From IMG/VR virus record IMGVR_UViG_3300004481_000271, positions 32,001-96,000 of that record: a stretch of 64,000 bases of DNA, one strand, 5' to 3'. Every line of letters begins with the position of its first letter. Position 1 is the first letter of the stretch. A program made the position numbers and the translations under genes. Shown piece after piece: positions 31,546-53,049 of the stretch. Source of the stretch: a virus. The notes below the pieces were generated by a model, which saw only the letters and a list, made by a program, of their open reading frames with translations, did not search any database and had not been told where the DNA came from.

Positions 31546-32436
31546 TCAGATCAGGGACTCGAAGACCGAAGCGACCGCGTCCGCGATCGCGAGCCCATAG
31601 GTGGACCGCGCGGCCAGAGGTTGCTCGATCTGGACGCCCCCTCCCGTCGCGGTCAACCAATTCACGACGTTCTTCGGGTCAGTCCCGGCGTAGGGCCCGG
31701 AGGTGACGACCTCGACGTCGAACTCGGCGCCGACGACGTCGGCGATCGCGTTCGCGACCGCTTGCTTCAGAGCGAGCGTCGCGGCCCCTCCGACCGAGAT
31801 CGGGTCCTCCCCGTAGCCGTGGAACGAGACCGCATGGGAGAACCCCCGCCCCGCGATTGCGGCGAGGAGCGGAAACGAAGCGACGTGAAGCTCCGTCGAG
31901 GTGATGTGCCATGCGGCCGCCGCCCCGCCCCCGGTTCGCCAGCCCTTGCACCGCCAGGCGGAGCACGGCTTCCCGGCGGAGGCGAGGGTTGCGAGAACTC
32001 GCTCCGCTTGCTCGTCGGTGTGGTTCTCGACCATCCCACCGTGCGGGGCGACCGCGACGAGTCCGGAATGGGCGGCGTCCGTCTCGTCGAGCCGCTCGAC
32101 GAACTCGCCTTGAGCCTCGGCCTGGGCATCGGTGAGATCGGAGCGCGAGCAGACGGAGTCGCACGTCCCCGACGAGAACGTCGAACCGGCGGAGTCGAGT
32201 CGCTTCCGTCCGTCGAGACACATTCGGATCCGACGGTCCGGTGATTCCTGGCGAAGCTCCGCGACCGTGTAGAGTGCTTTCAGCCCCGTCGTCGGGTGAA
32301 CGATCCGGACTTGCTGCCCGAGCCCCCGGCCGATCGCGGCGAGCTTCTCGGGGTCCGCAGAGCAATGCTCGGGGTATCCCATGAGGGCGGCCTGGTTAGC
32401 GTAGGCGGTCAAGACGTCGCAAAGGTAGGTGCCCAT
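31546..32436 (-). CDS. poly-gamma-glutamate hydrolase family protein (PghP/DUF867-like)
   Basis: VAPHGGMVE, WHITST, AVSFHGY, NVVN...GVQIEQ motifs of the family. Confidence 0.88.
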   Translation of the reverse strand: MGTYLCDVLTAYANQAALMGYPEHCSADPEKLAAIGRGLGQQVRIVHPTTGLKALYTVAELRQESPDRRIRMCLDGRKRLDSAGSTFSSGTCDSVCSRSDLTDAQAEAQGEFVERLDETDAAHSGLVAVAPHGGMVENHTDEQAERVLATLASAGKPCSAWRCKGWRTGGGAAAAWHITSTELHVASFPLLAAIAGRGFSHAVSFHGYGEDPISVGGAATLALKQAVANAIADVVGAEFDVEVVTSGPYAGTDPKNVVNWLTATGGGVQIEQPLAARSTYGLAIADAVASVFESLI

Positions 32437-37165: not shown

Positions 37166-37786
37166 TCAGCGGGCGCGTCGGACGGCGGAGGCGATCTCGG
37201 ACTTCTTCATCTTCCCGTCGACCTCGAGACCGAGATCGTCGGCGAGCTCGAGGAGCTCCTTTTTCGTCATCGCGGCGAGGTCCGGACCCTCGCCCTCCGC
37301 GTCCTCCGCGTCCTCCGCGTCCTCCGCCTCCGCTACGGCCTTCGCCGCAGCCTCGACCCTCGCTTCGAGGGCGATCGGGGTTGGTGCCAGGTCGGCAGCG
37401 ACCTTCCGGGCGGTCTCGCCCCGGTCGATCTCCTTCGCCTTCAACCCCGAGAAGGCGGACGGGATGACCTCCCCCTCCTTCTTCGGTGGGGCCGACTTCG
37501 TCGGAGACGGCGAGGCGAACATCTCGGCGAGGGCGGCAGCCTCGGGCCCGCCCATCTTCGCGGCGAGCTCCTTCCGAGCGATCTCACGCCAGGTTGCCTC
37601 GGTCTCGACGATCTCGAAGTAGGGCGCCCCGGTTCCCTGGACGAGGTCGCGGAGGGCGGCCGTCGCCGAGCTCGGGAGCTCGTACCACTTCCCAGCCTCG
37701 AAGATCTGGCCCCCAATGCAGACCCGTTGCGCGAGGGCGCCCCGCTTCTGACTGTAGGGGGCAAGTCGAACGTAATGCGTGGACAT
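37166..37786 (-). CDS. protein with C-terminal Rho-N/HeH-like domain
   Basis: DLAAMTKKELLELADDLGLEVDGKMKKSEI. GGAGG RBS before ATG at 37786. Confidence 0.75.
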   Translation of the reverse strand: MSTHYVRLAPYSQKRGALAQRVCIGGQIFEAGKWYELPSSATAALRDLVQGTGAPYFEIVETEATWREIARKELAAKMGGPEAAALAEMFASPSPTKSAPPKKEGEVIPSAFSGLKAKEIDRGETARKVAADLAPTPIALEARVEAAAKAVAEAEDAEDAEDAEGEGPDLAAMTKKELLELADDLGLEVDGKMKKSEIASAVRRAR

Positions 37787-37851
37787 AGCTCCTCCGTTCT
37801 GCCGGGAACGTATCACGCCCCCAGAGCCTTCCCCTAGAGGTTACTGCCCGG

Positions 37852-38657: not shown

Positions 38658-39590
38658 TCAGACCGCGCGGACCCCCGTCGCCTTCACGACCGCCGGCTCA
38701 TGCGCCCACTTGAAGTCGACGCGAGCGGTCACGACGATCATGTAGACGCCGGCCGAAATGTCGCGGTCGGTGTCGATCCGGATGTTCCGCCAGATCCCGA
38801 AGAGCATGTTCCCCGGGTCCGCCGCGAGGACGACCGTCTCGTTCGCGCCGACTCCGAGGTCGGTCGGGAAGACGGGAACGCCCATCACGGGGATCCCCTG
38901 GAACGGCCGGCTCTCGAGGGCCTGGACCTGCTCGTCGCCGAGCGGGGTCGCGCGGTCGCCGAGGCTCTCCTGATAGTCGATGTTCGCCTCGTCCGCGGAG
39001 AGGAAGCGGAGGCTTCGCTTGTCGCGGCGGAACTCAGAGGGCATCGTCTTCAGGATGTCCTTCAGGACGCTCCTCTGGAGGGTCGCCCCGCCCCCGAGGA
39101 CGACGTTCGTCGTCGCCTGGACGATGAAGCCGTTCAGGGTCTTCAGGAGGTCGTCCGTCGAGGTCGTGTCGCCGTTGAAGGCGAGGTCCTCGAGGTCGAG
39201 AGCGATCCGGTCCGCGAGGGTCTGGCGGATCGTCTGCTCGAAGTTGCCCCGCTCGATCGAGTCCTCGAGGGCCTCGAAGGAGACGTGGGTCTCCGCCTTC
39301 ACGAGCTGGGCGTCGAGCTCGATCTTCGAGGTGTCCGGCGCCGACCGCATGGCGAGCGGAAGCGCGGCGGCCTCCGTCCCCTTCCGGAGCGCGCGGGACC
39401 CATATCGGATCTTTTCCCGGAGCTCCTTCGGGCTGTTCATGTCGACCCTCGTCATCATGGGCATGACGACGGACTGGTCGATCGCGAGCTGGATGAACCG
39501 GTCGGCCTGTGCGGGCTCGAGGAGACCGCCAGGCGCCAGGTTCGCCAGCAAGAAGTCCGCCTTCCGAATGACGTCGCGGTTGTCCTGCAT
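38658..39590 (-). CDS. major capsid protein (HK97 fold)
   Basis: GGLLEPAQADRFI, EDSIERGNFEQTI, DLEDLAFNGD, GIWRNIRI. Confidence 0.95.
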   Translation of the reverse strand: MQDNRDVIRKADFLLANLAPGGLLEPAQADRFIQLAIDQSVVMPMMTRVDMNSPKELREKIRYGSRALRKGTEAAALPLAMRSAPDTSKIELDAQLVKAETHVSFEALEDSIERGNFEQTIRQTLADRIALDLEDLAFNGDTTSTDDLLKTLNGFIVQATTNVVLGGGATLQRSVLKDILKTMPSEFRRDKRSLRFLSADEANIDYQESLGDRATPLGDEQVQALESRPFQGIPVMGVPVFPTDLGVGANETVVLAADPGNMLFGIWRNIRIDTDRDISAGVYMIVVTARVDFKWAHEPAVVKATGVRAV

Positions 39591-39617: not shown

Positions 39618-41003
39618 TCAGAGGACCCAAGGCCCGCCGCGATGCGTGCGGTCGGCCCGCGTTCCGTTGCTTCTTCCGGTCGACTCGGTCCGACTCGCGG
39701 GAACTTGGGGCGTTCCCGCGATCTCCTCGACCTTCGAGGTGACCGCGTCGAGCTTCTTCATGATCCCGGCGAGGAGGTCGTCTCCCTCGCGGACGGGCTT
39801 GTCGTCGGGGCCGGAGCCGACGCTTCCCGGACCGCCGTCGGCGTTCGCCGGCGGGAGCGGTTCGGTCGCGGCGGCCCGCTTCTGGGCGTCCTCGGTCGAA
39901 GCGGCCGGAGCCTCCGCCTCTTCGATGATCGAGATCGCCCGACGGACGGCGTCGAGGACACGGGCGAGCTTGTCGGCTCCGCCCTTCTCGACGGTCGACT
40001 CGAGGGACTTCGAGAGCCCGACGATCTCGTCGCGGATTCGGACGAGCTCGGCGGGGTCGGGAGCGTTCGCGATCCGGGTCATCGCCTCGGCGAGGACCTT
40101 CAGCTTGTCGCTGGTCTCGGATCCGACCGCGGAGAGCTTCTCGTCCATCTCCTCGGCAGTGACCTCGACCGCCTCGCCCTCGGCCTTCTCCTCGACGGTC
40201 GGCTCCGCGGCCGGCGGGTCGGAGGCGGGAGCCTCGACGGTGGGAGCGGGAGCGGGGGTCTCGCCTCCGGCCGGAGCTCCGCCCTCGGCCTCCGGCTCCT
40301 CGGGGACGTCCGCCTTCGTCTCGGCGGTGGCCTCGAGGGCGGACGGCGCCGCTCCGGCGGTCGGCTGGGGATACTTCTCGGCGAGGGCGTTCAGCTTGGC
40401 GGCGAGCGCCCGGACTTGCGACAACGTCGCGGCGTCGAGCTCGTCGGACTCGGCGGCGGAGGCGGCGAGGGACATCGCGGTCTCGCCGACCTCCATCAAG
40501 CCCTGCGAGACCGGGCCGTCGGCCTTGTCGACCTTCTCGGCGGTCTTGCTCATGGGCGAAGGATACCGCGAAAGAGCTCCGCGCAACAGATCCGAGATCG
40601 CGGTGATCTCCTCCGCGAGCTCGACGGGGACCGGCTCGGCCGACGACTCGGACGTCTCGCCGGCTTCCTTCACCATGTTGGAGACGGAGACGAGCCGCTC
40701 GAGAGCCTCGGTCACGATCCGGAGGAGTCCCTCCTTCACCGGACCGGGGAGGTCGACCTTCACCACGGCGGAGACGTCCGCCGCGAGGGTTGTCTCGGCG
40801 ACATCGTTCGTCGCCGTCCTGGTCGGGTCCATGTTCCCTCCGCGTTGCTTGACGATGAGAAAGCGCCGACGGTTCGCGGCGCGGTCGACGAAGGAGACCT
40901 CCTCGACGAGGATGTCCCGAAGCCGAAACTTCGCTTCGTCGGGAGCTCGCCCCAGGAAGACGAGAGCGGCCTCGAGAGCTCGGTTGAACTTCGCGACGTC
41001 CAC
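39618..41003 (-). CDS. capsid scaffold protein with N-terminal protease-completing strand
   Basis: RLRDILVEEVSFVDRAANRRRFLIVK followed by an acidic Ala/Glu/Pro-rich helical body. GTG start inferred. A second ATG with RBS at 40832 could give a shorter form. Confidence 0.75.
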   Translation of the reverse strand: MDVAKFNRALEAALVFLGRAPDEAKFRLRDILVEEVSFVDRAANRRRFLIVKQRGGNMDPTRTATNDVAETTLAADVSAVVKVDLPGPVKEGLLRIVTEALERLVSVSNMVKEAGETSESSAEPVPVELAEEITAISDLLRGALSRYPSPMSKTAEKVDKADGPVSQGLMEVGETAMSLAASAAESDELDAATLSQVRALAAKLNALAEKYPQPTAGAAPSALEATAETKADVPEEPEAEGGAPAGGETPAPAPTVEAPASDPPAAEPTVEEKAEGEAVEVTAEEMDEKLSAVGSETSDKLKVLAEAMTRIANAPDPAELVRIRDEIVGLSKSLESTVEKGGADKLARVLDAVRRAISIIEEAEAPAASTEDAQKRAAATEPLPPANADGGPGSVGSGPDDKPVREGDDLLAGIMKKLDAVTSKVEEIAGTPQVPASRTESTGRSNGTRADRTHRGGPWVL

Positions 41004-41029: not shown

Positions 41030-44000
41030 TCAGGACGCCAGCGATTCCCGAAGGGCGGTCCCGCCCATGGAGTAGCCGGTGAAGGCGCCTCGCTTGATCG
41101 CCTCCCAAACGTCATCGTTCAGGACGCGGGTCCCGAGAAACCACGTCCCGACCGGAAAGGTCTCCTCGCCGTGGGTCTCGCGCACCTTCGCGAGGTAGGT
41201 CTCGAGCACGACAACACCATCGACCGCAGCCCCGTTGTGCATGACCTTGAAGGTGTCACCCCCGAAGTGTTCCATGTAGCTATGAGCCGCCTTCCGAACC
41301 TCGTCGGCGGAGTAGATGTCGCCCTGGGCGTCCGGTTCGTTGGGGACGAGGACGACGCCGAAGACGTAACGCTCCTCGGGCTCGGAGCCGTCCCGCTTCA
41401 AGAGGCGGACCGGCCGCTCCGCTCGGACGATCCGCTTCGACGTCTCGGTCCGCTCCTCGAGCTCGCCTGGCCGAAGAAGGAGACGGACGTCCTCCGGCTT
41501 CATCGGCGCCCCCTCGAGGAGGTCGATCGCCTGGGCGGGACCGAACCATCGAATCCGCTTCGGCGGCCCCTCCTCCCAGAGGAGCTCGAAGGTATGCACG
41601 AGGATCGTGTCCCCGACATCGGCGTCGAGCTTGCGGTTCCCGGTCCGACCGACGAGGACGTAGGGTCTTCCCTCGACCTCGACGACCTCCTTCCACTCCT
41701 CGATCTCGGAGCTCGAGATCGGCCCGACGGCACCGACGAAGTTGTAGACCTCCGGTGATCCCTCGACGGCGTTCCGCTCGGCGACGATCGCTCGGACTTC
41801 GCGGACGGCCTTGACCTTCGCCCAGAGGTCTTGCTCGCCCCCGAGGGAGTAGGTCGAAGCGAGTTGCTTCATCATCGCGCCCTCGGAGCCCGGCTCCTTC
41901 GTTGCCCAGGCGATCGCCCGGCGAAGCGCCGACCTCGTCTGCGCGATCCTCCTCGGGGCGAGGATGACTCGCGTCGCCCTCGAGATCTCCGAGTCGCGGA
42001 AGAACCGCTCGAGGGCCCGACGGCGTTCGCCCTGGGGCCGACCGGCGAGGGAGTCCCCGCCCGAGTAGAGGAGATCGAAGACGACGAAGCGGAGGTCCTC
42101 GTCGTCGACGGGCTTGTCGACGCGGAAGCGGGAGAGCTCGCGGCGCGGAAGGAAGGAACCCTCCTCGTCGACGGCCATGATCTCGCCGTCGAGGATGAAG
42201 CTCCCCCCGACCGCCTCGAGCTCGCCGGCGAGCCCGCGGAGGTTCGGCGCGATGTCCCGCTGGGTGTCTTCGGTGTAGACGAGGACCCCGCCCTCGCGGA
42301 CGTCCTCGTCGACGTTCGCTTCCCACTTCTCCGCGATCGCGCGGAAGCCGTTCAGCTTGGGCTCGACCTGGACGCCGGCCCGGACGAGTTGGTCAGTGAA
42401 GACCTGGCGAGCCGCTTCGTCCGGGTCGGTGAACTCGTTCGTCGCCCTGGGCGCCGGCTTCATCGGTTGGAAGAGCGCCGGCGGCCGAAGCTCGAGCCGC
42501 TCGCCCCCCTTGTCGTCTCCGTCCTCGACCTCCTTCGGATTCCAGACCTGGGTCCCGTCCTCCCGGACGCGGTGTCGCTTCGCGATCCCAGCCTCGGAGA
42601 GGGACCGCTCCGTCCCGGTCGGGAGCTCCTCGCCCTCGAGCTCGATCGTGTGCCAGTGGCGAACGTCCCGCCCGGGGACGGTCTGGACCGGGAGGCTCGT
42701 CTCGAGCTCGTCCCGGACGCGGTGTCGATGATCCCGACCGGCGGCCGGTTCGGTGAAGCCCTCGCCGAGGGTCTCGGGGAGGGCGTGGACGTGGCCGTCG
42801 CCTCGAGCCTTCTCCTCGGGAACCGCCCTTGCCGGCGTCCCGCCCGGCGAGAATTGCCAGAGGTCCGAGCCGGCTTCCTCGGCGACGAGGGAGAAGAGCC
42901 CCCGGAGCTTCTCGCCCCGGAAGCGGACCCGCTTGAACGTCCGACCGTCCTCGAGGAGCTCGGCCCGACCGCGGTCGACGAGCTCGACCGCCGAGGCGGT
43001 CGCCTTCGTCTCGTTCATCGGGACCCCGCCGACCTTCGCCCCAGGCGGGACGTCGCCCTCGAAGCCGAGGAGCTCCTTCCCGGCGTCGAGGAGGACGGCG
43101 CCGATGACCTCCTCGCCGGAGAGCGGGTCCTTCTGGAGCTGGAAGTCGTAGACCCCGCCCCCTGGCTTCTCGATCGCGAGGTGCCAGATCTGCCGGCTCG
43201 GCGCGGCCCGGATGACGGTCTGGCCCTTCCACCATTGCCAGGCGAGGGAGAAGTCGACGCGGGCGGCCTGTTTCTCGAGCTCGCCGAGCTCGCCCTCCTC
43301 CGGGTCGTAGGCTTCGACGAGGACCTTCCGCTCGACCCGTCGGAACTCGTTATTTTCGACGACGACGTTCTCCGAGGTGAAGATCCGCTCGGCGACGAGG
43401 GCGTCGCGGACCTCCCGGGCCTCCCGCTCGGAGTCGGCCTCCCAGAAGCGAAACTCCCGCGGCGTGGCTTCCATGAGAGACCGCGGCATCCCGGATTGAC
43501 CGAGCGGAGGCATGGACCGCGTTCGGACGGACCGGCGGTCGAGGACGGACGGGAGGACGTCCTTCGCGAAGCCGGTCGTCCAGAAGGTCTCGCTCGGCCC
43601 GTGGCCGGCGTCGTCGGGAGCGGGCGCGTCCCCTCCCTGGAGAAGCCGGAAGGTGAGCCGGCCGGCGAAGTCGGAGCCGGTGAGAAAGTATTCATGGGCG
43701 GCCGGCTTCTGAAGCCCCCATTCGACCTTCGGCCTTGCGACCTCGACGTAGACCCCCGGCTCGTTCCGCGTCGCCCCGACGTCCCCCGGCTCGACGACGG
43801 CGTCGCCGAGCTCGAGCCACTCGATCGGCTGCCTCGACTTCGGAGTCGCGAAGAGCCTCGCGGGAAGGATCATCGGCTTTGTGTAGCGGGAGCCTTCGAC
43901 GTTGAAGGCGGCGGCGATCTTCCGCCCATCGGCGACGGTCGAGACCTCGGGGACGGCGCCGGCCTTCTGAAGAGCGATCGTCCAGCCGACGAGGTAGTCC

Positions 44001-46084
44001 GGATCGACCTTCATCCGGAGGTCGGCGTGAAGCGTCCGGCCGCGGAAGTGAAACTGGAGAACAGCAAGGACCGGCCCCGGCTTCGCCGGCCAGTCGAGCA
44101 TCGGGTCGTCTTGCTTCGCGACGTCCGCCATCTCCTTCAAGGCGCGGTCCTCGTGGGGGACGAGAACGAGATCGTAGAGGGCGACGTGGTTCGTATAGGG
44201 CCCGCCGGCCGGTTCGTGGAGGAACTGGACCCGCCTCGAGAGCCGAGGCTCGAGGGCCCGCCCCAGGCGAAACTTGATCGCGTGAAGGGTCTCCTCGTCG
44301 AAGGGACCGCGGATCAGGATGTCGATGTCGTTCTCGCTCCGGCCAGCGGCGCAGATCGAGCCGACGAGGTAGACCGCCGGCATCCGGATCGACATCGGCT
44401 TCGAGAGCTGGGCGAGGACCTCCTCGAGCGCGGCGGGGTCGTCGGCGTTCGCGCGTTCCCCGCTCGGGTGAATCGGCGCCGTCTTCCCCTCCCCGTCGGG
44501 GAGGGCCTTCCCAAGGGCGGCGAGCTCGGACTCGGTGATCGGACGGCCCGGCCCCTCGAGCTCCTCGGTTCCGAATGTCTCGCCGGAAAGGAAGCGGACC
44601 GTCTCCTCGGCGAGAGCGTCGACCTCGACGGTCTGGACGCCTCGACGGCCGAGCTCGGCGAGGAGGAAGGCATGGGCGTTGATGACGTCCTCCCGCGTGA
44701 CCCCCTCGGCGCGGGTCACGTCGGACTCGGCGAAGGACCGCTCGAAGATCCGATGAAGTTGACGATCGAGCTCGACGAGCTCGGCCGGTGTCGCCCGCCG
44801 GAGCTCGTTCGGAGACGGGTCGGCGATGAAACCGTGAGCCCCCCGGCGGGCGGCCTGGCGGAGGACCTCGTCGATCGACATCTGTCGGGACTTCACGACG
44901 TCCCGGTCGAAGTCGACCGAACTCCCGAAGCGGCGCCCCAGCGGCGGGCGGCGGAGCTCGAGCGGCGGGTCGAAGATCACGACGACCTCGAGGGGGAGAT
45001 ACCAGAGCCCCGACTCGGTCGAGAACTCCCGGGCGGTGAAGTCGTCGAGGGACTCCTTCTGCTCGTCGGAGAGATCCGCCATGGTCTCGACCGCGACCGG
45101 ATCGGCCTGGGCGACGACCGCCCAGACGAGGGACTTCCCGACCCCCTGGGGGGCGACCTCGTTCACGAGGGCCTGGGGCTTGCCGATCCGCCCGACCCGG
45201 CGACGCCTCGAGAGGAGAGCGGCCGGCTTCCCATCGCGGAGCCGCTCGACGATGAACCCCGGATCGGGGACTTTCAAGGCGGGGAGAACCCCCTTCGGGG
45301 GCTCGGCTTGCCAGACGACGGCGGGAACGGCCCCGGAGAGCCGGCCGGCGAGAACGGCGACGGCGAGCTCCTCGACAGGTCCGCACTGGGCGATCGACGC
45401 GAGGGCGGGGTCGAGGTCGGCGAGCTTCGCGACGTCCTCGGCCCCGTCGAGGACGTAGGTCACGCGGGCGGCGACCGACCCCAGGGGAGGGCGAGCCGGC
45501 GGCGGAGCATTCGTCGCGAGCTCGGAAGCGGGCGGCGCCGGCGGGGTCTCCCGGAGGTCCGGCGACCCCATGGCTTCCCAGAGCTCCGCCCCGTCGAGGG
45601 AGCGGAGGACGAGCTCCCCGAGGGCGAGCTTGTGACCGTGGGCCCCGTCGAAGGCGGTCGACGTCGCGAGGAGCTCGTGAAGGTGATCGCCCCCCTCGTC
45701 GGTGATGAGCTCGACCCCCTCGCCGAGGACGAGGACGTGACGATGAACCGACCCGTCCCCGACGGCGACGTCGGCCCCGTTGCTCGTCTCGAGCCCGTGA
45801 GCGTGCGGCCCGTCCTCGGAGGTTGCCAGGACGGCGCCGGCCTCGAGGTGGACCTCGCCCCCTCCGTCTGGGTCGAAGATCGAGATCGGCGCGGGGAGGC
45901 GGAAGAGGTGCCGATGAAGCCCGTCGAGCTTCGTCGTCCCGGTCTCCCGCTCGAGGTTGTGAACGTGAACCCCGGCCTCGGCCGAGCCGGCGGGGAGCCC
46001 CTTCGCGAGCTCGGCGCGATTCCCCTCGAGGGTGTCGGCGGCCTTCGCCAGGGCGGCCTCGAGGCGGTCTTCGATCGTCATCAT
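41030..46084 (-). CDS. 1684-aa polyprotein: His-rich repeats, ASCH-like, nucleotidyltransferase, two LigD phosphoesterase-like domains, ATP-dependent ligase, XkdF-like prohead serine protease
   Basis: VYLVGS...NDIDILIR; QFH...LHADLR; DRG...FRGEKLRG; EPKLNGFR / ILDGEI / VFDLLY / EGAMMK / WAKVK; VFGVVLVP..DAQGD...MH...TGYSMGG. Confidence 0.88.
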   Translation of the reverse strand: MMTIEDRLEAALAKAADTLEGNRAELAKGLPAGSAEAGVHVHNLERETGTTKLDGLHRHLFRLPAPISIFDPDGGGEVHLEAGAVLATSEDGPHAHGLETSNGADVAVGDGSVHRHVLVLGEGVELITDEGGDHLHELLATSTAFDGAHGHKLALGELVLRSLDGAELWEAMGSPDLRETPPAPPASELATNAPPPARPPLGSVAARVTYVLDGAEDVAKLADLDPALASIAQCGPVEELAVAVLAGRLSGAVPAVVWQAEPPKGVLPALKVPDPGFIVERLRDGKPAALLSRRRRVGRIGKPQALVNEVAPQGVGKSLVWAVVAQADPVAVETMADLSDEQKESLDDFTAREFSTESGLWYLPLEVVVIFDPPLELRRPPLGRRFGSSVDFDRDVVKSRQMSIDEVLRQAARRGAHGFIADPSPNELRRATPAELVELDRQLHRIFERSFAESDVTRAEGVTREDVINAHAFLLAELGRRGVQTVEVDALAEETVRFLSGETFGTEELEGPGRPITESELAALGKALPDGEGKTAPIHPSGERANADDPAALEEVLAQLSKPMSIRMPAVYLVGSICAAGRSENDIDILIRGPFDEETLHAIKFRLGRALEPRLSRRVQFLHEPAGGPYTNHVALYDLVLVPHEDRALKEMADVAKQDDPMLDWPAKPGPVLAVLQFHFRGRTLHADLRMKVDPDYLVGWTIALQKAGAVPEVSTVADGRKIAAAFNVEGSRYTKPMILPARLFATPKSRQPIEWLELGDAVVEPGDVGATRNEPGVYVEVARPKVEWGLQKPAAHEYFLTGSDFAGRLTFRLLQGGDAPAPDDAGHGPSETFWTTGFAKDVLPSVLDRRSVRTRSMPPLGQSGMPRSLMEATPREFRFWEADSEREAREVRDALVAERIFTSENVVVENNEFRRVERKVLVEAYDPEEGELGELEKQAARVDFSLAWQWWKGQTVIRAAPSRQIWHLAIEKPGGGVYDFQLQKDPLSGEEVIGAVLLDAGKELLGFEGDVPPGAKVGGVPMNETKATASAVELVDRGRAELLEDGRTFKRVRFRGEKLRGLFSLVAEEAGSDLWQFSPGGTPARAVPEEKARGDGHVHALPETLGEGFTEPAAGRDHRHRVRDELETSLPVQTVPGRDVRHWHTIELEGEELPTGTERSLSEAGIAKRHRVREDGTQVWNPKEVEDGDDKGGERLELRPPALFQPMKPAPRATNEFTDPDEAARQVFTDQLVRAGVQVEPKLNGFRAIAEKWEANVDEDVREGGVLVYTEDTQRDIAPNLRGLAGELEAVGGSFILDGEIMAVDEEGSFLPRRELSRFRVDKPVDDEDLRFVVFDLLYSGGDSLAGRPQGERRRALERFFRDSEISRATRVILAPRRIAQTRSALRRAIAWATKEPGSEGAMMKQLASTYSLGGEQDLWAKVKAVREVRAIVAERNAVEGSPEVYNFVGAVGPISSSEIEEWKEVVEVEGRPYVLVGRTGNRKLDADVGDTILVHTFELLWEEGPPKRIRWFGPAQAIDLLEGAPMKPEDVRLLLRPGELEERTETSKRIVRAERPVRLLKRDGSEPEERYVFGVVLVPNEPDAQGDIYSADEVRKAAHSYMEHFGGDTFKVMHNGAAVDGVVVLETYLAKVRETHGEETFPVGTWFLGTRVLNDDVWEAIKRGAFTGYSMGGTALRESLAS

Positions 46085-46085
46085 G

Positions 46086-46418
46086 TCAGCCCTCCGCGGT
46101 CCAGCCTCGTTCGGCGGGCGGAGGTTCCCAGGACTCCCCGTCGAGCTCCGCGCGGACAGCCCTCGGAAGGAGGTCGAGGGCCTTCGTCGACGAGTAGCCC
46201 GCCTCGGTCCGAAGCCGGATGAACCAATCATAGGCGAGATCCGTCCGGCGTTTCACTTCGGCATCCGTCGGCGAGACCCCTCGGAGGAGCACGATCGCAG
46301 AACGGCGGCGGTCCTCCTCGAAGGTCTCGGCGACGACCCGGGTGATCCGGGTGACGATCTGCCGGACCCGCTCCGGGTCACCGTTCGCGAGCTCGCGGAG
46401 GACGTCGGTCTTCTCCAT
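46086..46418 (-). CDS. hypothetical protein
   Basis: RBS present, tightly packed between MuF and the polyprotein. Confidence 0.7.
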   Translation of the reverse strand: MEKTDVLRELANGDPERVRQIVTRITRVVAETFEEDRRRSAIVLLRGVSPTDAEVKRRTDLAYDWFIRLRTEAGYSSTKALDLLPRAVRAELDGESWEPPPAERGWTAEG

Positions 46419-46433: not shown

Positions 46434-47723
46434 TCAGACCGGGATCGTCGTGCATCGGCAAAGCCCGTGAGCGGGCGGGACCATGGTTCCGCCGGCCTCG
46501 CGAACGGACGTCAGCTCCCGGAAGGTGCCCCTCTCGTCGTTTCGTCCGGCGGCAGATTCGCGCACGACAGCGACCGGAGTCGTCGGCCCCTCTCCTCGAG
46601 GCGAGACGTAGATCGTCCCGCCGACCCGAAGACCCTCGGGCGACGTCGTCCCGCCGACGACCCGATACCACGGGAACTCGTTCACCCCGGCCTCTGGGTC
46701 CGGGTTCGCGGACGCTCGAGCGTAGCGGGCGAGCTGGGGCTCGACGGCGAAGACCTGGCCATGAAGGAACTGGCAGATCTGGCAAGTCCGGCCGTCGAGG
46801 AACGCCTCCCATTGGTAGTATTGGAAGCCCGCCTCGCGGTAGCCGGAGAGGGAGCCGAAGCTCCTCGACCGGGAGGTCGTCGCGGAGGCGACGACCCGGT
46901 AATACCACTCGGAGCGGCCGGAGACTCGGTCGCGGAGGGCGGCGGTCAAGTCGCGTCCGATGTCGACCCGCCCGAGCCCCTCGCGAACCCCGCTCGAAAT
47001 GATCGCCCGAGCGTCGCGGGACCACATGGCGCCCCGGTGTCGATATTCGTTCGTGACGAACGTCAGTCCGTCCCGACCGATCCGGCGGGCGATCGCCTCG
47101 GCGCCGGCGGAGAGGGTCCGCGAGACCCCTGGACCGCCGGCAACGAGGGAGGCGGCGCCGGTCGCCATGGCGGCGGCCTCGAGGGTTGCAGTCGCCTCGG
47201 CGACGTAGGCTGCATCGGACGGGATCTCGGCGACAAGCTCGGCGACCCCGTCGATCGCTTCGTTGAGCTCGGCGGCCGACATCGCCGGCCAAGGGCGCCG
47301 GCCGAGGGTTGCGAGAGCTTGTCGGACCGCCTCCCGCTCCGCCGGCGTCGCGACGGAAACAAGCCCTTGTTGGAGCTGCTCGACGGCAACGGCGAACCCC
47401 GTCCGCGTGAGAGGGTTCGGCGGCGCCTTCGCGACGGCGATCCGGTCGACGGCGATCGGCCAGAGCCAGGCGCCCGAGCGGGTCTGGATCACGCCTTGGA
47501 GGACGAAGGCGACCCCATCGCCGGCCTTGGCGAGCTCGCGAGCTCGCTTCTCGACCGCCTCGGCGGAGAGCTCGCGGACGAGCTCGCCCAGGTAGGGCGA
47601 GAAGGCGGCAAGGGCGAGGTGAGACGCGCACCCCAGGGGACCGGGAGGGTCGGCGAAGAGGACGTCCCTCGAGCTCGCCACCGTCCGCCACGGCGGACCG
47701 TAGACGGCGAGCTCCTCGGTCAC
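46434..47723 (-). CDS. MuF / phage minor head protein
   Basis: YQWEAFLDGRTCQICQFLHG...PPAHGLCRCTTIPV. GTG start inferred. Confidence 0.88.
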   Translation of the reverse strand: MTEELAVYGPPWRTVASSRDVLFADPPGPLGCASHLALAAFSPYLGELVRELSAEAVEKRARELAKAGDGVAFVLQGVIQTRSGAWLWPIAVDRIAVAKAPPNPLTRTGFAVAVEQLQQGLVSVATPAEREAVRQALATLGRRPWPAMSAAELNEAIDGVAELVAEIPSDAAYVAEATATLEAAAMATGAASLVAGGPGVSRTLSAGAEAIARRIGRDGLTFVTNEYRHRGAMWSRDARAIISSGVREGLGRVDIGRDLTAALRDRVSGRSEWYYRVVASATTSRSRSFGSLSGYREAGFQYYQWEAFLDGRTCQICQFLHGQVFAVEPQLARYARASANPDPEAGVNEFPWYRVVGGTTSPEGLRVGGTIYVSPRGEGPTTPVAVVRESAAGRNDERGTFRELTSVREAGGTMVPPAHGLCRCTTIPV

Positions 47724-48175
47724 CGTGCCCGCTCCCCGGCCCACTTCCCGCCGGTCGTCCGGACGATCGCAACGTCCGCGCCGGCAAGGGCGAGGGCGGT
47801 CACGCGAAAGGCGACGTCGTGTCCCTCGGTCGCGACCTCGTAGATCGCCCCGGAGCCGAGAGCCCCTGTCGAGGCGAGCTCCCGCCACTTCCGGCCCCCG
47901 GCGTTGTTCGGATAGGGCGTCGCGACGAGCGGGGTGATCGTGACCGTCCCGCCAGCGTGCGGCGCCCCCGCCGTCGTCTCGAAGTCGACGACGAGCCGAA
48001 CCGTGTCCCATTCCCTCGCGTCGAGCGTGACGTCGTCGGCGACGACCCCGGCGGTGATCTCGCCGGCGGAGAGGTTGTCCGGTGTCCAGGCGGCGGCGTC
48101 TTGGATTCCGAGATCATCGCGGACGACGACCGTCGCGTCCTGGGAGTAGAGCCTTCGCTTCGTCGGGCCTGTCAT
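47720..48175 (-). CDS. hypothetical virion protein
   Basis: Coupled to portal and MuF, beta-rich. Confidence 0.7.
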   Translation of the reverse strand: MTGPTKRRLYSQDATVVVRDDLGIQDAAAWTPDNLSAGEITAGVVADDVTLDAREWDTVRLVVDFETTAGAPHAGGTVTITPLVATPYPNNAGGRKWRELASTGALGSGAIYEVATEGHDVAFRVTALALAGADVAIVRTTGGKWAGERAR

Positions 48176-50077
48176 CTATTCCTCCTCGAGGAGGTCCGCC
48201 CCGTGAAGCCCCGCCGCTTCGTCGAGGGCGGCCCGTGCCGCTCGAGCGGCGGCGTCGGGGACCTCTCCCGCGGCCTCCTCGAGGGCGTTGTTACGGGCGG
48301 CCTGGGCGGCGCCAGCGGCGGAGAGGGAGCGGAGCTCTTCCTCGACCCCTGGACGCCAGTCGGTCCCCTTGTCGGAGCTCGAGCTCGCCCCCTTCGTCTC
48401 GTCCTCCGGAGGGCGGAAGCCGGCGAGCGTGAGCTGGATCGGTTGCTTCGCCCAGGGGACGTCGAGGGAGTCGAGGTCCATCCCGATCACGTCGGAGGAG
48501 AGCTCTCTCGCTTCGTTCGGGGTCACGACCCCGACCTTTGCCAGGTCGACGATGATCGCGGCGACCTTCTCCGGGTCCCTCGTCGAGGGCCCAAGGCTCC
48601 GGTAGGTCCAGAGGGTGATCCCGAGAGCGGGGAGGATCGTCCGGTTGAACCAAGCATCGAACTCCCGCCGCTCCGGCTCGAAGATCTGCTCGTCGGCGAA
48701 GCGAAGGGAAGCGTCGGCAGTCGCCCGGTTGAAGTCGCGGACGTCCCCGCGAAGAAGTCGCGGCAGGCGAAAGGAGCTCCCGATCTTGTCGATGTTCCGC
48801 TCGTCGTAGGCTTGGAAGAGGGCGTCCCCTTGCTGGACGTCGACGAGCTTCTCGAACTTGAGAGTCGGAATCTCCCTCGGTGACAGCGGGTCAGCGTCCG
48901 CGTCGTCGGCCTCGATCACGAGGATCGAATGGAAGTTGCCGCGCCCCTTGATGTTGTCGCGGAGGTAGGTCTGGATCTGGTCGACCGAATCGGAGGAGAG
49001 CCTCCCGCCGGAGACGAGAAGGGCGAGCGGAGGAACCGCCTTGTTGTCGAAGTAGGTGTAATTGACCTCGTCGGCAGCCCTCGAGCCGAGGACGGAGAGG
49101 AGATTCCCGATCCATCGCGGGACCCCGTAAGCCTCCCCCGTCCGATGGATCCGAAAGTGAACGAGCTCCGTCGCCGGAGCTTCATCGTTCCGGCCAAGGG
49201 TTGCAGCCTTGAAGGCGGCGAGGGTCGGATAGACCTCTCCGGTCTTCTGGGAAACGACTCTGGGGTCGCCGAACTCCTTGAACCAAACGAGCTTCCGCCC
49301 GACGGCCTGGACGTAGCGGCGGAAGAAGCGAGGTTGACGAACGACCTCGAAGCCGAGCCCGACCTGGACCTTCTCCTCGACGAGGACCGGCTCCTCGTCG
49401 ATCGGTGTGCAACGGACGTGCGTCGGTGGAACGACAACGAAGCGGGCGAGCCGGCCGGCCCGATCGCGAAGGACCTCCCAGTAGGCGTTGCCGCAGATCT
49501 CCCGGTCCTGGCGGGTCTGTCGCTTCAAGGTGTCGAAGGACCCCGTCGGGGAGACCGCGTCGAGGAAGGCAGAGAGCTTCGCCTTCTCGATCCGTTGGAG
49601 GCTCTTCAGTTGCTCGAGCTTCTTCTCGACCTCCTCGTCCGACGGCATGAGGGCGAGTGGGTCGAGGGCGAGCTCGCCCTCCGCCGGCGGAGCCCCCTCT
49701 TCCCCAAGACGGGAAGTCGCGTCGGCGAGCCTCGCCTCGGCGCGACGGAACCGCTCGACCCAGATCGCATCGCGGACCTTCTCGAAGGAGTCGTCGGCGT
49801 TCAGGTCGATTCGGGGAGCGAACCGGTAGCCGAGCCCGTCGATGTTCGTAACGTAGGCGGCGACGTTCTGGTTTAGAGCGGAGCTGTTCTCCCAGAGTCG
49901 GAAGAGCGTCCCGGGGTCGTAGCTCGGCTCGACGACCCCGGAGCCGCTGAAGAGCGCCCCGAGTTGCTCGTCCTCGGTGCCCTGGATCGATCGCGGGATG
50001 ACGAGGTCGGAACCGAGGACCTCGGCTTTCAACGTGCGCCGGCGTCCGCTCCTCTTCGTCTCGCGATCGTCCGCCAT
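48176..50077 (-). CDS. portal protein (PBSX-like)
   Basis: CGNAYWEVLRD, ELVHFR, YGVPRW, YFDNKAVP, FRLPRLLRG, DFNRATA, TPNEAR. Confidence 0.95.
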   Translation of the reverse strand: MADDRETKRSGRRRTLKAEVLGSDLVIPRSIQGTEDEQLGALFSGSGVVEPSYDPGTLFRLWENSSALNQNVAAYVTNIDGLGYRFAPRIDLNADDSFEKVRDAIWVERFRRAEARLADATSRLGEEGAPPAEGELALDPLALMPSDEEVEKKLEQLKSLQRIEKAKLSAFLDAVSPTGSFDTLKRQTRQDREICGNAYWEVLRDRAGRLARFVVVPPTHVRCTPIDEEPVLVEEKVQVGLGFEVVRQPRFFRRYVQAVGRKLVWFKEFGDPRVVSQKTGEVYPTLAAFKAATLGRNDEAPATELVHFRIHRTGEAYGVPRWIGNLLSVLGSRAADEVNYTYFDNKAVPPLALLVSGGRLSSDSVDQIQTYLRDNIKGRGNFHSILVIEADDADADPLSPREIPTLKFEKLVDVQQGDALFQAYDERNIDKIGSSFRLPRLLRGDVRDFNRATADASLRFADEQIFEPERREFDAWFNRTILPALGITLWTYRSLGPSTRDPEKVAAIIVDLAKVGVVTPNEARELSSDVIGMDLDSLDVPWAKQPIQLTLAGFRPPEDETKGASSSSDKGTDWRPGVEEELRSLSAAGAAQAARNNALEEAAGEVPDAAARAARAALDEAAGLHGADLLEEE

Positions 50078-50116: not shown

Positions 50117-50797
50117 CTACCGCGGGAGATAGAGCTCGCGGAGCTCGGCCCGGTCCGAGTCGGTGAGGCGGCCGGCGGGGAGCTCGCTCTCCTCGGCAGA
50201 GAGCGTCCGCCGGTTCATCAGCGAGCCCGTCCAGTCGTCGTGGGCAAGCCCGGCGGCGTGACCGAGCTCGTGAAGGAGAACGCGGAAGAGCGTCGCGTCG
50301 TCGGGGACGTTCCGGACGACAACCGTCGCGGCAGTCGCCCGGCCGTCCCCTCGAAGCCGATGTCGGCACTCCCCGGGAGGGTCGCCGAGCTCGGCGGCGG
50401 CCCCAAGAACGAGGGAGACGTCGACGACCCCTTCGCGCCCCCGGTCGAGGGTGAAGAGCTCGAAGCCGACCTGGGAGTTGAAGTCGGCGACGGCGGCCTC
50501 GACGACTCGAAGCTCCTCGGCCGGCGGCGTCCCGTTCTCGCCCTCTCCATGAAAGACCCGGACGGCGAGCGGGACAGCCTCCCGCGGCCAGCGGAGCTCG
50601 AGAGCGTCCGCACAAGTCGCCGGCTCCTCGCCCTCGAGGTCGTCGACGTAGACCGCCCGGTCGCCGATCCGGCAGATCCGCAGGAGCCCCGGCTCGTCGT
50701 GCGTCGTGACCCCGTAGACGATGAGAACCGCGGCGGCGACCCCGATCGTCAGGAAGACGACAACCCCGACGACCCATCCGACCCAGCGGCGTTGCAT
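50117..50797 (-). CDS. membrane-anchored matrixin-like (M10) zinc metalloprotease
   Basis: N-terminal TM helix, HELGHAAGLAH, Met-turn SLMN, LTDSD...LY. Confidence 0.85.
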   Translation of the reverse strand: MQRRWVGWVVGVVVFLTIGVAAAVLIVYGVTTHDEPGLLRICRIGDRAVYVDDLEGEEPATCADALELRWPREAVPLAVRVFHGEGENGTPPAEELRVVEAAVADFNSQVGFELFTLDRGREGVVDVSLVLGAAAELGDPPGECRHRLRGDGRATAATVVVRNVPDDATLFRVLLHELGHAAGLAHDDWTGSLMNRRTLSAEESELPAGRLTDSDRAELRELYLPR

Positions 50798-51135
50798 GAT
50801 TCGCCCTCCTCCTCCTCGCAAGACTGCCCAGCGAGAGCGGCAGCCCTCGCCTTCGCGGCGATCTTCGCGAGCTCCTCGGGACCCCCGACCGCGTCGGCGA
50901 GCTTCGCGAGCTTCGCTTGAAGCTCGGCGTTCGCCTTCTCGGCGGCGTCGGCGAGCCCCTGGGCAAAGCGGATCGCCTGGGCGGGGTTCAAGACAACGTG
51001 GTCGAGCATCCGTCCGAAGCGGACGGCGACTTGACCCGGAGCGGTCCCGATGTTGATGTCGATCGACCGCGACGGCGCCGACGGCGCAGCCTTCCCGTTC
51101 CGCGGCCGCTTCCCTGGCTTCCTTGGCTTCTTCAC
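50749..51135 (-). CDS. hypothetical protein
   Basis: GTG start inferred, coupled to neighbours. Confidence 0.55.
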   Translation of the reverse strand: MKKPRKPGKRPRNGKAAPSAPSRSIDINIGTAPGQVAVRFGRMLDHVVLNPAQAIRFAQGLADAAEKANAELQAKLAKLADAVGGPEELAKIAAKARAAALAGQSCEEEEGESCNAAGSDGSSGLSSS

Positions 51136-51413
51136 CCCGAGCTCCTTCCCCTTGGAACCTCTTCGAGCGTCGGCTCGTCGCCTCGACCGGCGGTCTCTTC
51201 CTCCTCCTCGACGACGACCTCCGGCTCCGGCCGGACGTAGCGGGCTCGGACGGCGGCCTCGCACCGGTCGGAGCACGCATCGAACCGCCCCCAGCCGAGA
51301 ACCTCGACGAACCGCCAGGGCGGCGGAAGGACGACGACCCTCTCCGGACGATCGACCGGGATCGCCCTGGGGCAGGCGTCGCAAACGATCCGAGATTCCG
51401 TCCGGTCGACCAT
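51132..51413 (-). CDS. small Cys-containing protein
   Basis: CDAC...ACSDRC. Confidence 0.6.
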   Translation of the reverse strand: MVDRTESRIVCDACPRAIPVDRPERVVVLPPPWRFVEVLGWGRFDACSDRCEAAVRARYVRPEPEVVVEEEEETAGRGDEPTLEEVPRGRSSG

Positions 51414-51447
51414 GGCGCCTCGAGTCTACTCTCCGACCGCGGTCGAT

Positions 51448-53049
51448 CTAAACCCCGATGATCTTCGCGCCCCCTCGCCCCGAGCTCCGACGAGCTCTTC
51501 GGTCTCGACGGGCGGAGTAGAGGCGGGCGGCCTCCCGGGCGATCCACGACGCCATGAGGCGGTCGCCCGTATGTGTCCCGGGGTCGTAGGACACCATCTC
51601 AGCGATCCATTCCCCGACCTGGGAACCGACGGCGCGAGTCCCCGCCTCGCACGGGATCGCCCACTTCCCGACGGCGAGCTCGGCGGCGAGAGACTCGACC
51701 CCATACTCGGCAGAGAGCTTGTTTCGTCCGGTCGTGAAGGAACGGACGCGGAGACCCGGAGCCCGTTCCCGGACCCACTGAAGGAGGAAGTCCTGGGCGG
51801 CGTTGTTCTCGACGATGACGATCGATCGGAACCGCTCGTGAACGGAGACGACCCGGTCGATGATCTCGGGCCCGGCCCATCGGCCGGCCTGGACCTCGAG
51901 GACCTGGCGAACCTCGTCCGGCCGGACGAGGATCGTGAAGAGGGCGGTCAGGTCGGCCGACTCCTTCCTCGAGACGGCGAGGTCGACTCCGGTCACAACG
52001 AGAACCCCCTCGGGGAGCCCGCCGAGGCGGGCGACGGCGTCGGTGAAGTTGAGCTCCTCGGCGAGCTCGGGGAGCTTCTCGGGGATCTCCTCGAGGCTCC
52101 GGATCGTCGGGAGCCCCTCACCGTTCGCGAGGCACGTCTCGATCCACTCCCGCTTGAACCGTGCGGACTCCTCGTCGCGGGGTTGGCATAGCATCTGGCG
52201 AGCGAACTCGATCGGTCCGAGGATCTCGTTCCGCGTTCGCTCGATCCGCTCGAGGTTCCATCGCTCCGGCCAGAGCGGGACACCGTCGGCGTTGACGACG
52301 GGATACCGCTTCGCCCACCACCCCGACCGCTCGAGAGAATGCGCCATGTCGTCCGGGTGCCAGGCGTTCGATAGGAAGACGACCCAAGCGCCCTCGGCGA
52401 GCCGCGGGAAGGCGGAGGCGCGGATCCATTCCTCCGTCTTCTCCCGCTGGTACTTCGTCCGGGTGTTGATCTCCGTCAAGACGTCGTCGATCACGAGCCC
52501 GTCAAGGCGGGCGCCTTGGATCGTTCCGCCCTCCGGAGAGTAGGCTTGAACCGACGGGTCCTTGATTCCGTGCGGCCGCTCGATCTCGATCGCGTTGTCC
52601 GTCCAGAGGGTCCCCTTCCTGAGTCCGGGGAAGACGTCTCGGACGACCCGGTTCTCGATGATGTGCCCCTGGATCGCTCGGATGATCTTCTTCGCCTGCC
52701 CCTGAGTCGCGGAAAGGATCGCGTATCGACGCCGGACGTCCTGGCCAAGAAGCCAGAGGATGCGGACGATCGCGAGCTGTTGGGTCTTCCCCGACTCCGG
52801 GAACGTCCAGATCACCGCGAGGAGGTTCTCCTCGATCGTGTCGTGCCATTCGACTTGGAAATCTTGAACCTCGATCGGGTGTCCGGTCTCCTCTTCGCGA
52901 AGGACGAGCTCGCAGAACGTCGGGCAGTCGTGACGCGCGAGCTCGACGAGGGACGCATAGGCGAGCCTCGCGGTGTCAACGAGCGGACTCGCCTCGACCC
53001 GCCGATGGAGGAACCGAAGATCCGCCGTCTTATCTCCGGAGAAGGTCAT
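51448..53049 (-). CDS. terL: terminase large subunit
   Basis: PESGKT (Walker A), LVIDD (Walker B), WHPDD, LWPERW, GVDLA, VENNAAQ, HTGDRLMA. Confidence 0.95.
   Translation of the reverse strand: MTFSGDKTADLRFLHRRVEASPLVDTARLAYASLVELARHDCPTFCELVLREEETGHPIEVQDFQVEWHDTIEENLLAVIWTFPESGKTQQLAIVRILWLLGQDVRRRYAILSATQGQAKKIIRAIQGHIIENRVVRDVFPGLRKGTLWTDNAIEIERPHGIKDPSVQAYSPEGGTIQGARLDGLVIDDVLTEINTRTKYQREKTEEWIRASAFPRLAEGAWVVFLSNAWHPDDMAHSLERSGWWAKRYPVVNADGVPLWPERWNLERIERTRNEILGPIEFARQMLCQPRDEESARFKREWIETCLANGEGLPTIRSLEEIPEKLPELAEELNFTDAVARLGGLPEGVLVVTGVDLAVSRKESADLTALFTILVRPDEVRQVLEVQAGRWAGPEIIDRVVSVHERFRSIVIVENNAAQDFLLQWVRERAPGLRVRSFTTGRNKLSAEYGVESLAAELAVGKWAIPCEAGTRAVGSQVGEWIAEMVSYDPGTHTGDRLMASWIAREAARLYSARRDRRARRSSGRGGAKIIGV

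Follow-up and report, generated by a model that had tools for sequence, protein, structure and literature searches.

A prohead protease fused to a ligase, phosphoesterase and nucleotidyltransferase set: a candidate virion-loaded DNA end-repair protein in tailed viruses

The 64,000-nucleotide stretch of viral DNA analysed here (the window; positions 32,001 to 96,000 of IMG/VR record IMGVR_UViG_3300004481_000271) encodes, at 41030..46084 on the minus strand, a protein of 1684 amino acids in which an ATP-dependent ligase, two LigD-type phosphoesterase (PE) barrels and a minimal nucleotidyltransferase (NTase) precede a C-terminal XkdF-type prohead protease. From the N-terminus the chain runs through a His-rich region of HxH repeats, an ASCH/PUA-like domain, a helical domain, the NTase, the first barrel (PE1), a conserved 'Mid' region, the second barrel (PE2), a second HxH region and the ligase to the protease. 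Judged from its genes alone, this appears to be a polyvalent protein that is loaded into the virion and, at entry, heals and seals broken ends of the phage's own DNA, a reading to which we assign a probability of about 0.5. Hundreds of uncultured phages likewise have the repair set within their head modules, which makes its packaging into the capsid and its injection together with the DNA probable. The source record is a 108,941-bp virus genome, complete by CheckV, with a GC content of about 69%.

The repair set among head genes

An exhaustive phmmer search with the NTase-to-PE2 segment recovered 1096 clusters (at 50% identity) with E <= 1e-3, and 294 with E <= 1e-30. Domain hidden Markov models built from an alignment of 16 homologues (the 16-sequence alignment) were applied to 187 of the proteins found in this way, the family sample used throughout. 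Ligase and PE1 occur together in 140 of the 187, with the PE first in 83 and the ligase first in 57, and XkdF is present in 127, lying within 25 residues of the C-terminus in all 127. A word-indexed search for XkdF and ligase in one chain gave 62 proteins of 1000–2400 residues, to whose N-termini Dam, Dcm, 2H/LigT, UDG, radical SAM, Tad3 and inteins have been added. The full architecture was absent from 50,697 GenBank phage genomes, the best match being the uncultured archaeal virus ANMV-1, and one family protein used as sole query (P0118) recovered no viral loci.

The protease domain itself occupies residues 1552–1682 (41039..41431; all features of the window given here lie on its minus strand, and residues of the polyvalent protein are counted from the start codon at 46084). 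It matches Pfam PF14550 (Peptidase_S78_2) over residues 1568–1678 with E 5e-27 and 94.8 bits against a cut-off of 24, and its H1616 and S1672 are invariant in the 16-sequence alignment. It is the sole XkdF copy in the complete 109-kb genome, in which no S78 or ClpP protease was found, and is thus the only recognisable prohead protease of the genome.

The gene order around XkdF is constant. The family alignment retrieved 78 IMG/VR loci; in 77 of them, portal and MuF genes, often followed by a small gene, precede the XkdF gene, and scaffold and major capsid protein (MCP) genes follow it. The XkdF gene product in this slot ranges from 235 to over 2000 residues, and the cargo ahead of the protease may be absent or consist of one to four Dam methylases, ASCH alone, HxH alone, PE1-Mid, ASCH-helical-NTase or the full kit. 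On this comparison of loci, XkdF thus behaves like an anchor that stays in place while the cargo N-terminal to it is exchanged, and some of that cargo belongs to known counter-defence families. The suggestion, first made from the letters of the window, that the protease serves to direct the enzymes to the head thereby gains strong comparative support from the strictly C-terminal XkdF, its slot and its swappable cargo, and from the head-module position that the repair trio also has where XkdF is missing.

Individual loci illustrate the range of this cargo. One XkdF protein (L060:1162-5625(+)) carries four Dam-methylase matches together with Tad3, an inhibitor of type I Thoeris, and Tad3 occurs together with the ligase kit in two family members (P0038 and P0039). 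Among cultured phages, gp18 of Arthrobacter phage Laroye (L003:4323-5444(+)), labelled 'RNA ligase', consists of a 2H/LigT phosphoesterase and a C-terminal XkdF and is therefore an enzyme-XkdF fusion in culture, while the product of the adjoining gene, the 'head maturation protease' gp17, is MuF-like.

The repair enzymes also occur without the protease. A free-standing form of about 1000 residues, ordered NTase-ligase(K-x-D-G)-OB-PE1-Mid-PE2, was found in a second set of 80 loci with GC contents of 0.30–0.69. By PHROG annotation, the free-standing kit gene follows the portal gene in L099, with the MCP further on, lies between portal and head maturation protease genes in L120, and in L090 is separated from the MCP downstream by one open reading frame (ORF). 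Among 67 XkdF-less loci, profiles seeded from the portal and MCP of this phage located a portal upstream and/or an MCP downstream in 21, always on the strand of the kit gene; the remaining 46 loci, with families unseen by these profiles, are uninformative. In the archaeal virus ANMV-1, too, a portal gene is followed by a gene for a ligase-PE1-Mid-PE2 protein. Flanked by portal or MCP genes with and without XkdF, the repair trio is, by its gene neighbourhood, a head-module gene in very different viruses, whether or not it is joined to XkdF. As regards the annotation of ANMV-1, the product of L001:1913-3193(+), named a 'MutT-like phage hydrolase', matches Phage_portal_3 with E 3e-22, and the ligase-PE gene comes directly after it.

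A head-module position and late co-expression would equally well suit enzymes that work on DNA as it is packaged, inside the procapsid or the cell that makes the virions, by nick sealing or by trimming and joining ends, and are not delivered at all, the fusion to the protease merely placing them beside the packaged genome. The ligase is the phage's only ATP-dependent one, and a ligase that is already adenylylated could carry out one sealing reaction in the absence of ATP. However, the Dam and Tad3 cargo of sister phages makes sense mainly in a newly infected cell, and the capsid interior would presumably offer no supply of ATP or NTPs to the NTase, so that an action confined to packaging appears unlikely.

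The putative end-repair enzymes

The adenylyltransferase domain of the ligase, with the segment preceding it, spans residues 1166–1430 (41795..42589) and matches Pfam PF01068 with E 5e-20 (72.5 bits against a cut-off of 26.2). Motifs I (K1243-x-N-G), III, IIIa, IV and V are all readable, and K1243, D1299/E1301, the F-D pair, E1401-G...K1406 and K1423/K1425 are conserved in the 16-sequence alignment. PDB and NCBIfam searches place the family with DNA ligases (archaeal ligases, Lig1/3, LigD and LigC), and its profile reaches archaeal DNA ligases with E 8.6e-16. The 93-residue block after motif V (residues 1430–1522, 41519..41797) is kept in 118 of the 187 family proteins, finds no Pfam match and corresponds to the ligase OB domain by position only. 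No other ATP-dependent ligase and no Ku were found in the genome, and no AEP primase-polymerase appeared among the Pfam or NCBIfam matches.

PE1 (residues 655–814, 43643..44122) and PE2 (residues 938–1090, 42815..43273) are separated by the Mid region (residues 831–914, 43343..43594). For an AlphaFold2 model of residues 650–1095 with a predicted local distance difference test score (pLDDT) of 90, the seven best Foldseek matches are all LigD PE structures (prob 1.0). VIA maps these matches onto PE2 (942–1083; Z 15.5 and a root-mean-square deviation (rmsd) of 2.4 over 120 residues aligned to 3p43; Z 13.7 to the P. aeruginosa LigD PE), and it is this degenerate copy that is structurally nearest to the solved LigD PE domains. 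A Foldseek search of the BFVD viral structures with the same model gave no convincing match. The two barrels are paralogues (hhalign profile-profile probability 96.4%, E 1e-9), and the eight-stranded beta-barrel of the PE fold is recognised in PE2 from its structure and in PE1 through homology to PE2.

In characterised PEs the active site comprises three manganese-binding residues (two His, one Asp), an Arg and a His that contact the phosphate, and one Tyr (Smith et al. 2011, PMC3082917). PE1 displays the corresponding Q-x-H...H-x-D-x-R, its metal-site residues H679, H686, D688 and R690 being invariant in 16 of 16 sequences and the motif Q-x-H(5-7)H-x-D-x-R being retained in 157 of 186 family proteins. 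None of the six catalytic residues remains in PE2, which has Ala and Leu at the places of the phosphate-binding His and Tyr. In two homologues (P0039 and P0051), Hint and LAGLIDADG domains break PE1 into two or three pieces, which suggests inteins inserted in the phosphoesterase.

The NTase (residues 533–650, 44135..44488) is, by its motif, a minimal member of the Pol-beta superfamily. Its signature G575-S576-x9-D586-I-D588 and the third carboxylate, D638, are invariant in the 16-sequence alignment, and 82 of the 156 NTase segments in the family fit a related regular expression. In an AlphaFold2 model of residues 255–655 (pLDDT 85), the alpha/beta fold at residues 565–640 aligns with 1no5 (HI0073; VIA Z 6.0, rmsd 3.1, 71 aligned) and with the MNT antitoxin 8xeo (Z 5.7), sharing 18% identity with its best neighbours; Foldseek probabilities are 0.84–0.96 at weak E-values, and no Pfam NTase family was matched. 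A homologue (P0014) is labelled 'predicted nucleotidyltransferase' by JGI. Together with the motifs of the ligase and the metal site of PE1, the catalytic motif of the NTase reads as intact.

That HI0073 and the MNT antitoxins are the best structural neighbours suggests another role for this domain, as an MNT-like protein adenylyltransferase that would neutralise a host HEPN-type toxin or defence protein and serve as an independent anti-defence tool. A survey of polyvalent proteins classes their Pol-beta NTases as protein-modifying (Iyer et al. 2017, PMC5512222), and one locus (L027) encodes an ASCH-helical-NTase-XkdF protein with neither PE nor ligase. On the other side, the NTase is found in 156 of the 187 family proteins, including the free-standing form, where the ligase follows it directly. 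A protein-modifying NTase is a serious if doubtful possibility; it concerns one domain and is compatible with the repair of incoming DNA by the rest of the chain.

The ASCH/PUA-like domain (residues 264–404, 44873..45295) lies in the same model, and its top Foldseek matches are 2kku, ZmASCH, TTHA0113 and EF3133, with a probability of about 1. VIA aligns it with 5y6b (ZmASCH; Z 9.2, rmsd 3.2, 120 aligned) at the head of a list that begins with about 20 ASCH/EVE/YTH entries; Pfam yielded no ASCH match, and a look-up in the protein atlas gave a weak PUA-like lead only. The helical domain that follows (residues 421–482, 44639..44824) has an invariant R464-E465...N469. Its assignment as a HEPN RNase (R-x6-H) was dropped, as the His varies (H, Y or L) and no HEPN structure was matched.

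Six G-x-H-x-H-x-hydrophobic units make up the N-terminal HxH region (residues 34–165, 45590..45985) and three the second (residues 1091–1155, 42620..42814). The nine HxH motifs of the protein compare with 0.83 expected and a maximum of 6 in 2000 shuffles. YmaF (PF12788) matches weakly, below cut-off (E 0.0025), and neither a PDB sequence search nor the protein atlas returned anything usable. These repeats may resemble the metal-binding HxH motifs of phage fibre proteins, and the His-rich module possibly binds metal. Two XkdF proteins of 595 residues (L032 and L033) have HxH repeat regions as their only cargo, and the module is therefore an independent unit.

The domains named in the sequence-only reading are each borne out at the coordinates proposed there. 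This applies to the XkdF protease, to the ligase with its motifs I to V, to the HxH repeats, to the ASCH/PUA-like domain and to the Pol-beta NTase. Of the two PE domains then suggested, the first is upheld by its homology to PE2 and its metal-site motif, and the second is as degenerate as had been thought.

The nature of these enzymes also bears on whether the substrate is DNA or RNA. A kit for mending RNA would act on host tRNAs cut by anticodon nucleases, in the manner of T4 Pnkp/Rnl1, with the NTase rebuilding 3' ends. Consistent with this, 2H/LigT domains, which act on RNA ends bearing 2',3'-cyclic phosphates, have been added in three homologues (P0020, P0058 and P0060), and Laroye gp18 joins such a domain to XkdF; ASCH proteins include RNA-acting enzymes (ZmASCH and YqfB are among the matches), and one free-standing homologue touches the RNA_ligase Pfam model below cut-off. 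Yet the ligase matches DNA ligase families and structures, Pfam scans of the protein show no 5'-kinase domain, other cargo of the family is DNA-directed (Dam, Dcm, UDG), and PE enzymes have been characterised on DNA primer-templates (PMC3082917). An RNA-mending function is accordingly considered quite improbable.

A scaffold peptide and candidate cleavage sites

A possible route into the procapsid is offered by the scaffold-like gene directly downstream of the polyvalent gene (461 residues, 39618..41003). Residues 26–52 of its product (40848..40928) form a conserved peptide, F-R-L-x-D-I-L-V-E-E-V-S-x-V-D-R-A-A-N...F-L-I-V-K, whose consensus h-R-L-x-D-[IM]-x-V-E-E-V-S-L-V-D-R-A-A-N-K-R-R-F-L-[IV]-V-K was found in 69 of 75 loci, with L28, E35, S37, V39, A43, N44, F48 and K52 invariant in 29 diverse sequences. 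The motif lies 47–285 nucleotides after the XkdF stop codon and occurs in all three frames relative to XkdF (47, 12 and 10 loci), mostly behind a start codon of its own, and the scaffold is therefore regarded as a separate gene. A programmed frameshift joining XkdF to the scaffold was rejected on the same grounds; in loci with a common frame, a stop codon stands between the two genes.

The canonical XkdF protein of Lactococcus phage 28201 (gp33) carries the same motif at its own N-terminus, followed by F-L-T-K, a second element L-L-T-K, the XkdF core and a helical tail. As the motif thus occurs in cis in gp33, we infer that the scaffold peptide docks on the XkdF core, in cis in gp33 and in trans here, and propose it as a candidate tether. 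Such docking would link the polyvalent protein, by way of the scaffold, to the procapsid. A related notion, of a split protease with its last strand on the scaffold, is retained only in part, since the Pfam XkdF model is matched up to position 123 of 126 and the shared motif is N-terminal, not C-terminal, to the protease in gp33.

Conserved lysines are found at six domain borders (K398, K657, K920, K1092, K1169 and K1563), where about two would be expected by chance (a rough estimate from 23 conserved-Lys columns). K1563, just before the XkdF core, is present in 16 of 16 sequences, and the scaffold peptide also ends in a conserved Lys. These border lysines are candidate cleavage sites. Release at such sites is likewise what would be expected if the fusion were an expression device, from which the protease frees itself before assembly and leaves the enzymes as late cytoplasmic replication or recombination factors, in a genome whose only ATP-dependent ligase is the fused one. 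This explanation does not account for the trio lying between portal and capsid genes, free of XkdF, in unrelated phages and an archaeal virus, and it leaves unexplained why XkdF is always the last domain; we think it very unlikely.

A proposed course of events

According to the favoured reading, in which the kit repairs the incoming genome, XkdF would enter the procapsid with the scaffold, perhaps via the scaffold's N-terminal peptide, and the N-terminal enzymes would ride along as its cargo, probably to be cut apart at the Lys-containing linkers and to exit along with the DNA when the virion infects a cell. In the new host, PE1 would act as a manganese-type 3'-phosphoesterase that cleans blocked 3' ends, the inactive PE2 may only bind nucleic acid, the minimal NTase may add nucleotides to ends, and the ligase would seal them; the ASCH/PUA-like domain, as a nucleic-acid-binding module, and the His-rich repeats would be accessories. 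Such a set would likely serve, independently of Ku, to mend or join ends of the incoming genome that are broken or cannot be ligated. The sequences show what the domains are, that the motifs of ligase and NTase and the PE1 metal site are intact, where the gene lies and how modular its family is; encapsidation, cleavage, ejection, a DNA substrate and an anti-defence purpose are inferred.

Several considerations weigh against this course of events. Common restriction and Cas cuts leave ligatable 3'-OH and 5'-P ends, for which no PE is needed, and a cargo of 183 kDa per protease would be expected to crowd the procapsid unless it is trimmed or present in few copies. In some loci the NTase and PE1 are each fused to XkdF without the ligase, and the modules therefore need not form one pathway. 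The NTase is likened to MNT antitoxins, which modify proteins; motif I of the ligase reads K-x-N-G, not K-x-D-G; and Pfam LigD_N (PF13298) finds no match in this protein or genome (it is matched by one of 16 homologues, with E 0.0011). Finally, Q752 and W756 of PE1 stand where the LigD PE has its phosphate-binding His and Tyr (His51 and Tyr55 of CkoPE), positions that were assigned from the profile alignment of PE1 with PE2, with the conserved F-E-G as a landmark. Owing to this replacement by Gln and Trp the chemistry of PE1 may differ or be weak; in archaeal PEs, changing the phosphate-binding His to Ala almost abolishes activity (PMC3082917).

Two further parts of the sequence-only reading fare unevenly. 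Its description of a Ku-less LigD analogue is supported, as regards PE and ligase, by their pairing in two alternative orders and by a genome in which neither Ku nor AEP was found. Its idea that the NTase replaces the AEP polymerase agrees with the NTase being the usual companion of PE and ligase, and is weakened by the MNT-like fold and by the occurrence of the NTase on XkdF without both. The kit may work like LigD but, by its domain make-up, is not LigD. As to the three uses then envisaged, namely circularisation, break repair and tRNA repair, the sequence gives no choice between them.

More broadly, bacterial and archaeal tailed viruses might widely carry a virion-borne, Ku-independent end-joining machine, with XkdF and the scaffold peptide as a general loading platform in one lineage, a generalisation that we put forward tentatively and hold less firmly than the reading of this one protein. 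The genome would then be resealed or circularised in the first moments of infection, blunting DNA-cutting defences, and the platform would place arbitrary enzymes in the capsid, be they the repair kit, methylases or the Thoeris inhibitor. If the cargo is indeed injected, repairing cuts would be a further means of counter-defence beside masking, modification and inhibitor proteins, and a general one, indifferent to the nuclease responsible for the break. The family is large, its 1096 clusters extending over phages with GC contents of 0.30–0.69 and an archaeal virus; LigD-type phosphoesterases would gain a second natural context, and the arrangement of XkdF and scaffold peptide could possibly be engineered for loading enzymes into phage heads.

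Gene boundaries and neighbouring genes

The polyvalent gene is a single ORF, the coordinates given for it including the stop codon. Its frame is open over 41030-46231(-), and the ATG at 46084 was taken as the start because a GGAGGG lies 7–8 nucleotides upstream, the stop codon of a 110-residue gene comes directly before it and the N-termini of homologues coincide there. This bears out the length of 1684 residues that had been claimed for the protein. The concern that the ORF might be an assembly chimera did not materialise, as the same architecture recurs on many independent contigs, for instance in P0003 (87% identical, 8 contigs) and in L005 and L008.

The order of the head genes confirms the proposed position in the protease slot between MuF and scaffold/MCP. 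Upstream of the polyvalent gene lie the terminase large subunit (51448..53049), the portal protein (48176..50077), the MuF-like minor head protein (46434..48011) and the small 110-residue gene (46086..46418), which is kept at the same place in most related loci with 31–52% identity. Downstream, the scaffold-like gene is followed by the major capsid protein of the HK97 fold family (38658..39590). Beyond the capsid gene, a 216-residue protein (37166-37816(-)) has a C-terminal Rho_N/SAP-like DNA-binding motif, at a sub-threshold score, and is kept after the MCP in many related loci. Between terminase and portal, the C-terminal 60 residues of the ORF at 50117-51547(-) match zincin metallopeptidases (Peptidase_M10, E 9e-7), and tblastn found no counterpart of this ORF in any of 78 related loci; it may be a genuine additional metallopeptidase gene or an ORF drawn too long in DNA of high GC content.

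Comparison with known systems

Phage polyvalent proteins, as described by Iyer et al. (2017, PMC5512222), have an assemblin-like peptidase, where one is present, always at the C-terminus and have been predicted to be delivered with the DNA. By the definition given there, the 1684-residue protein belongs with them in domain make-up and C-terminal peptidase: several unrelated enzymes share one chain in a portal-terminase phage, the peptidase comes last and, in sister phages, Dam-type methylases are among the cargo. In the text searched, the ligases mentioned are ATP-grasp RNA ligases only, LigD and XkdF do not figure, and the NTase-PE-PE-ligase block, the free-standing head-module form and the scaffold peptide are not described. 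The paper also reports that 2H domains of polyvalent proteins are never seen with RNA ligases; here 2H domains and the ATP-dependent ligase share polypeptides in some homologues.

The resemblance to bacterial LigD lies in the fusion of a PE fold to an ATP-dependent ligase, in the His-His-Asp-Arg core kept by PE1 and in the presence of a nucleotide-adding enzyme in the same chain, in a variable domain order. Unlike LigD, the viral protein has a minimal Pol-beta NTase instead of an AEP polymerase, and its genome lacks Ku; the PE is doubled, with one dead copy and a conserved spacer, and the phosphate-binding His and Tyr have given way to Gln and Trp; and it is a protease-fused product of a viral head-module gene. 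The solved structures nearest to PE2 are the archaeal stand-alone PEs CkoPE (3P43) and MbaPE (3P4H; Z 15.5 and 15.2, respectively, at 23% identity), to which the family profile also shows weak sequence matches (E 0.0019 and 0.024). These are single-domain cellular enzymes with a full active site, whereas PE2 is devoid of the six catalytic residues.

Phage P1 (with the anti-restriction protein DarB and its partners) and T4 (with Alt), both cited in PMC5512222, likewise pack large enzymes into their heads, which enter the cell with the genome and protect it or favour it. They differ in their head-targeting signals and in their activities, which are those of a methylase/helicase and an ADP-ribosyltransferase, and to our knowledge none of them carries a ligase or an end-healing enzyme. 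The parent concepts of polyvalent proteins and LigD are known; the combined architecture was not found described in the literature searched on polyvalent proteins, XkdF, ligase-protease fusions, phage LigD PE, ANMV-1 or virion ligases.

For the protease end of the chain, the closest parallel is the canonical XkdF protein gp33 of Lactococcus phage 28201, which presents the same protease in the same slot after portal and MuF, the same peptide (V-S-x-V-D-x-A-A-N...F-L-x-x-K) and an L-L-x-K element before the protease core. In gp33, peptide, protease and a helical, scaffold-like tail form one chain of 349 residues, whereas in the phage studied here the peptide and scaffold are encoded by a separate downstream gene, and 1550 residues of enzymes precede the protease.

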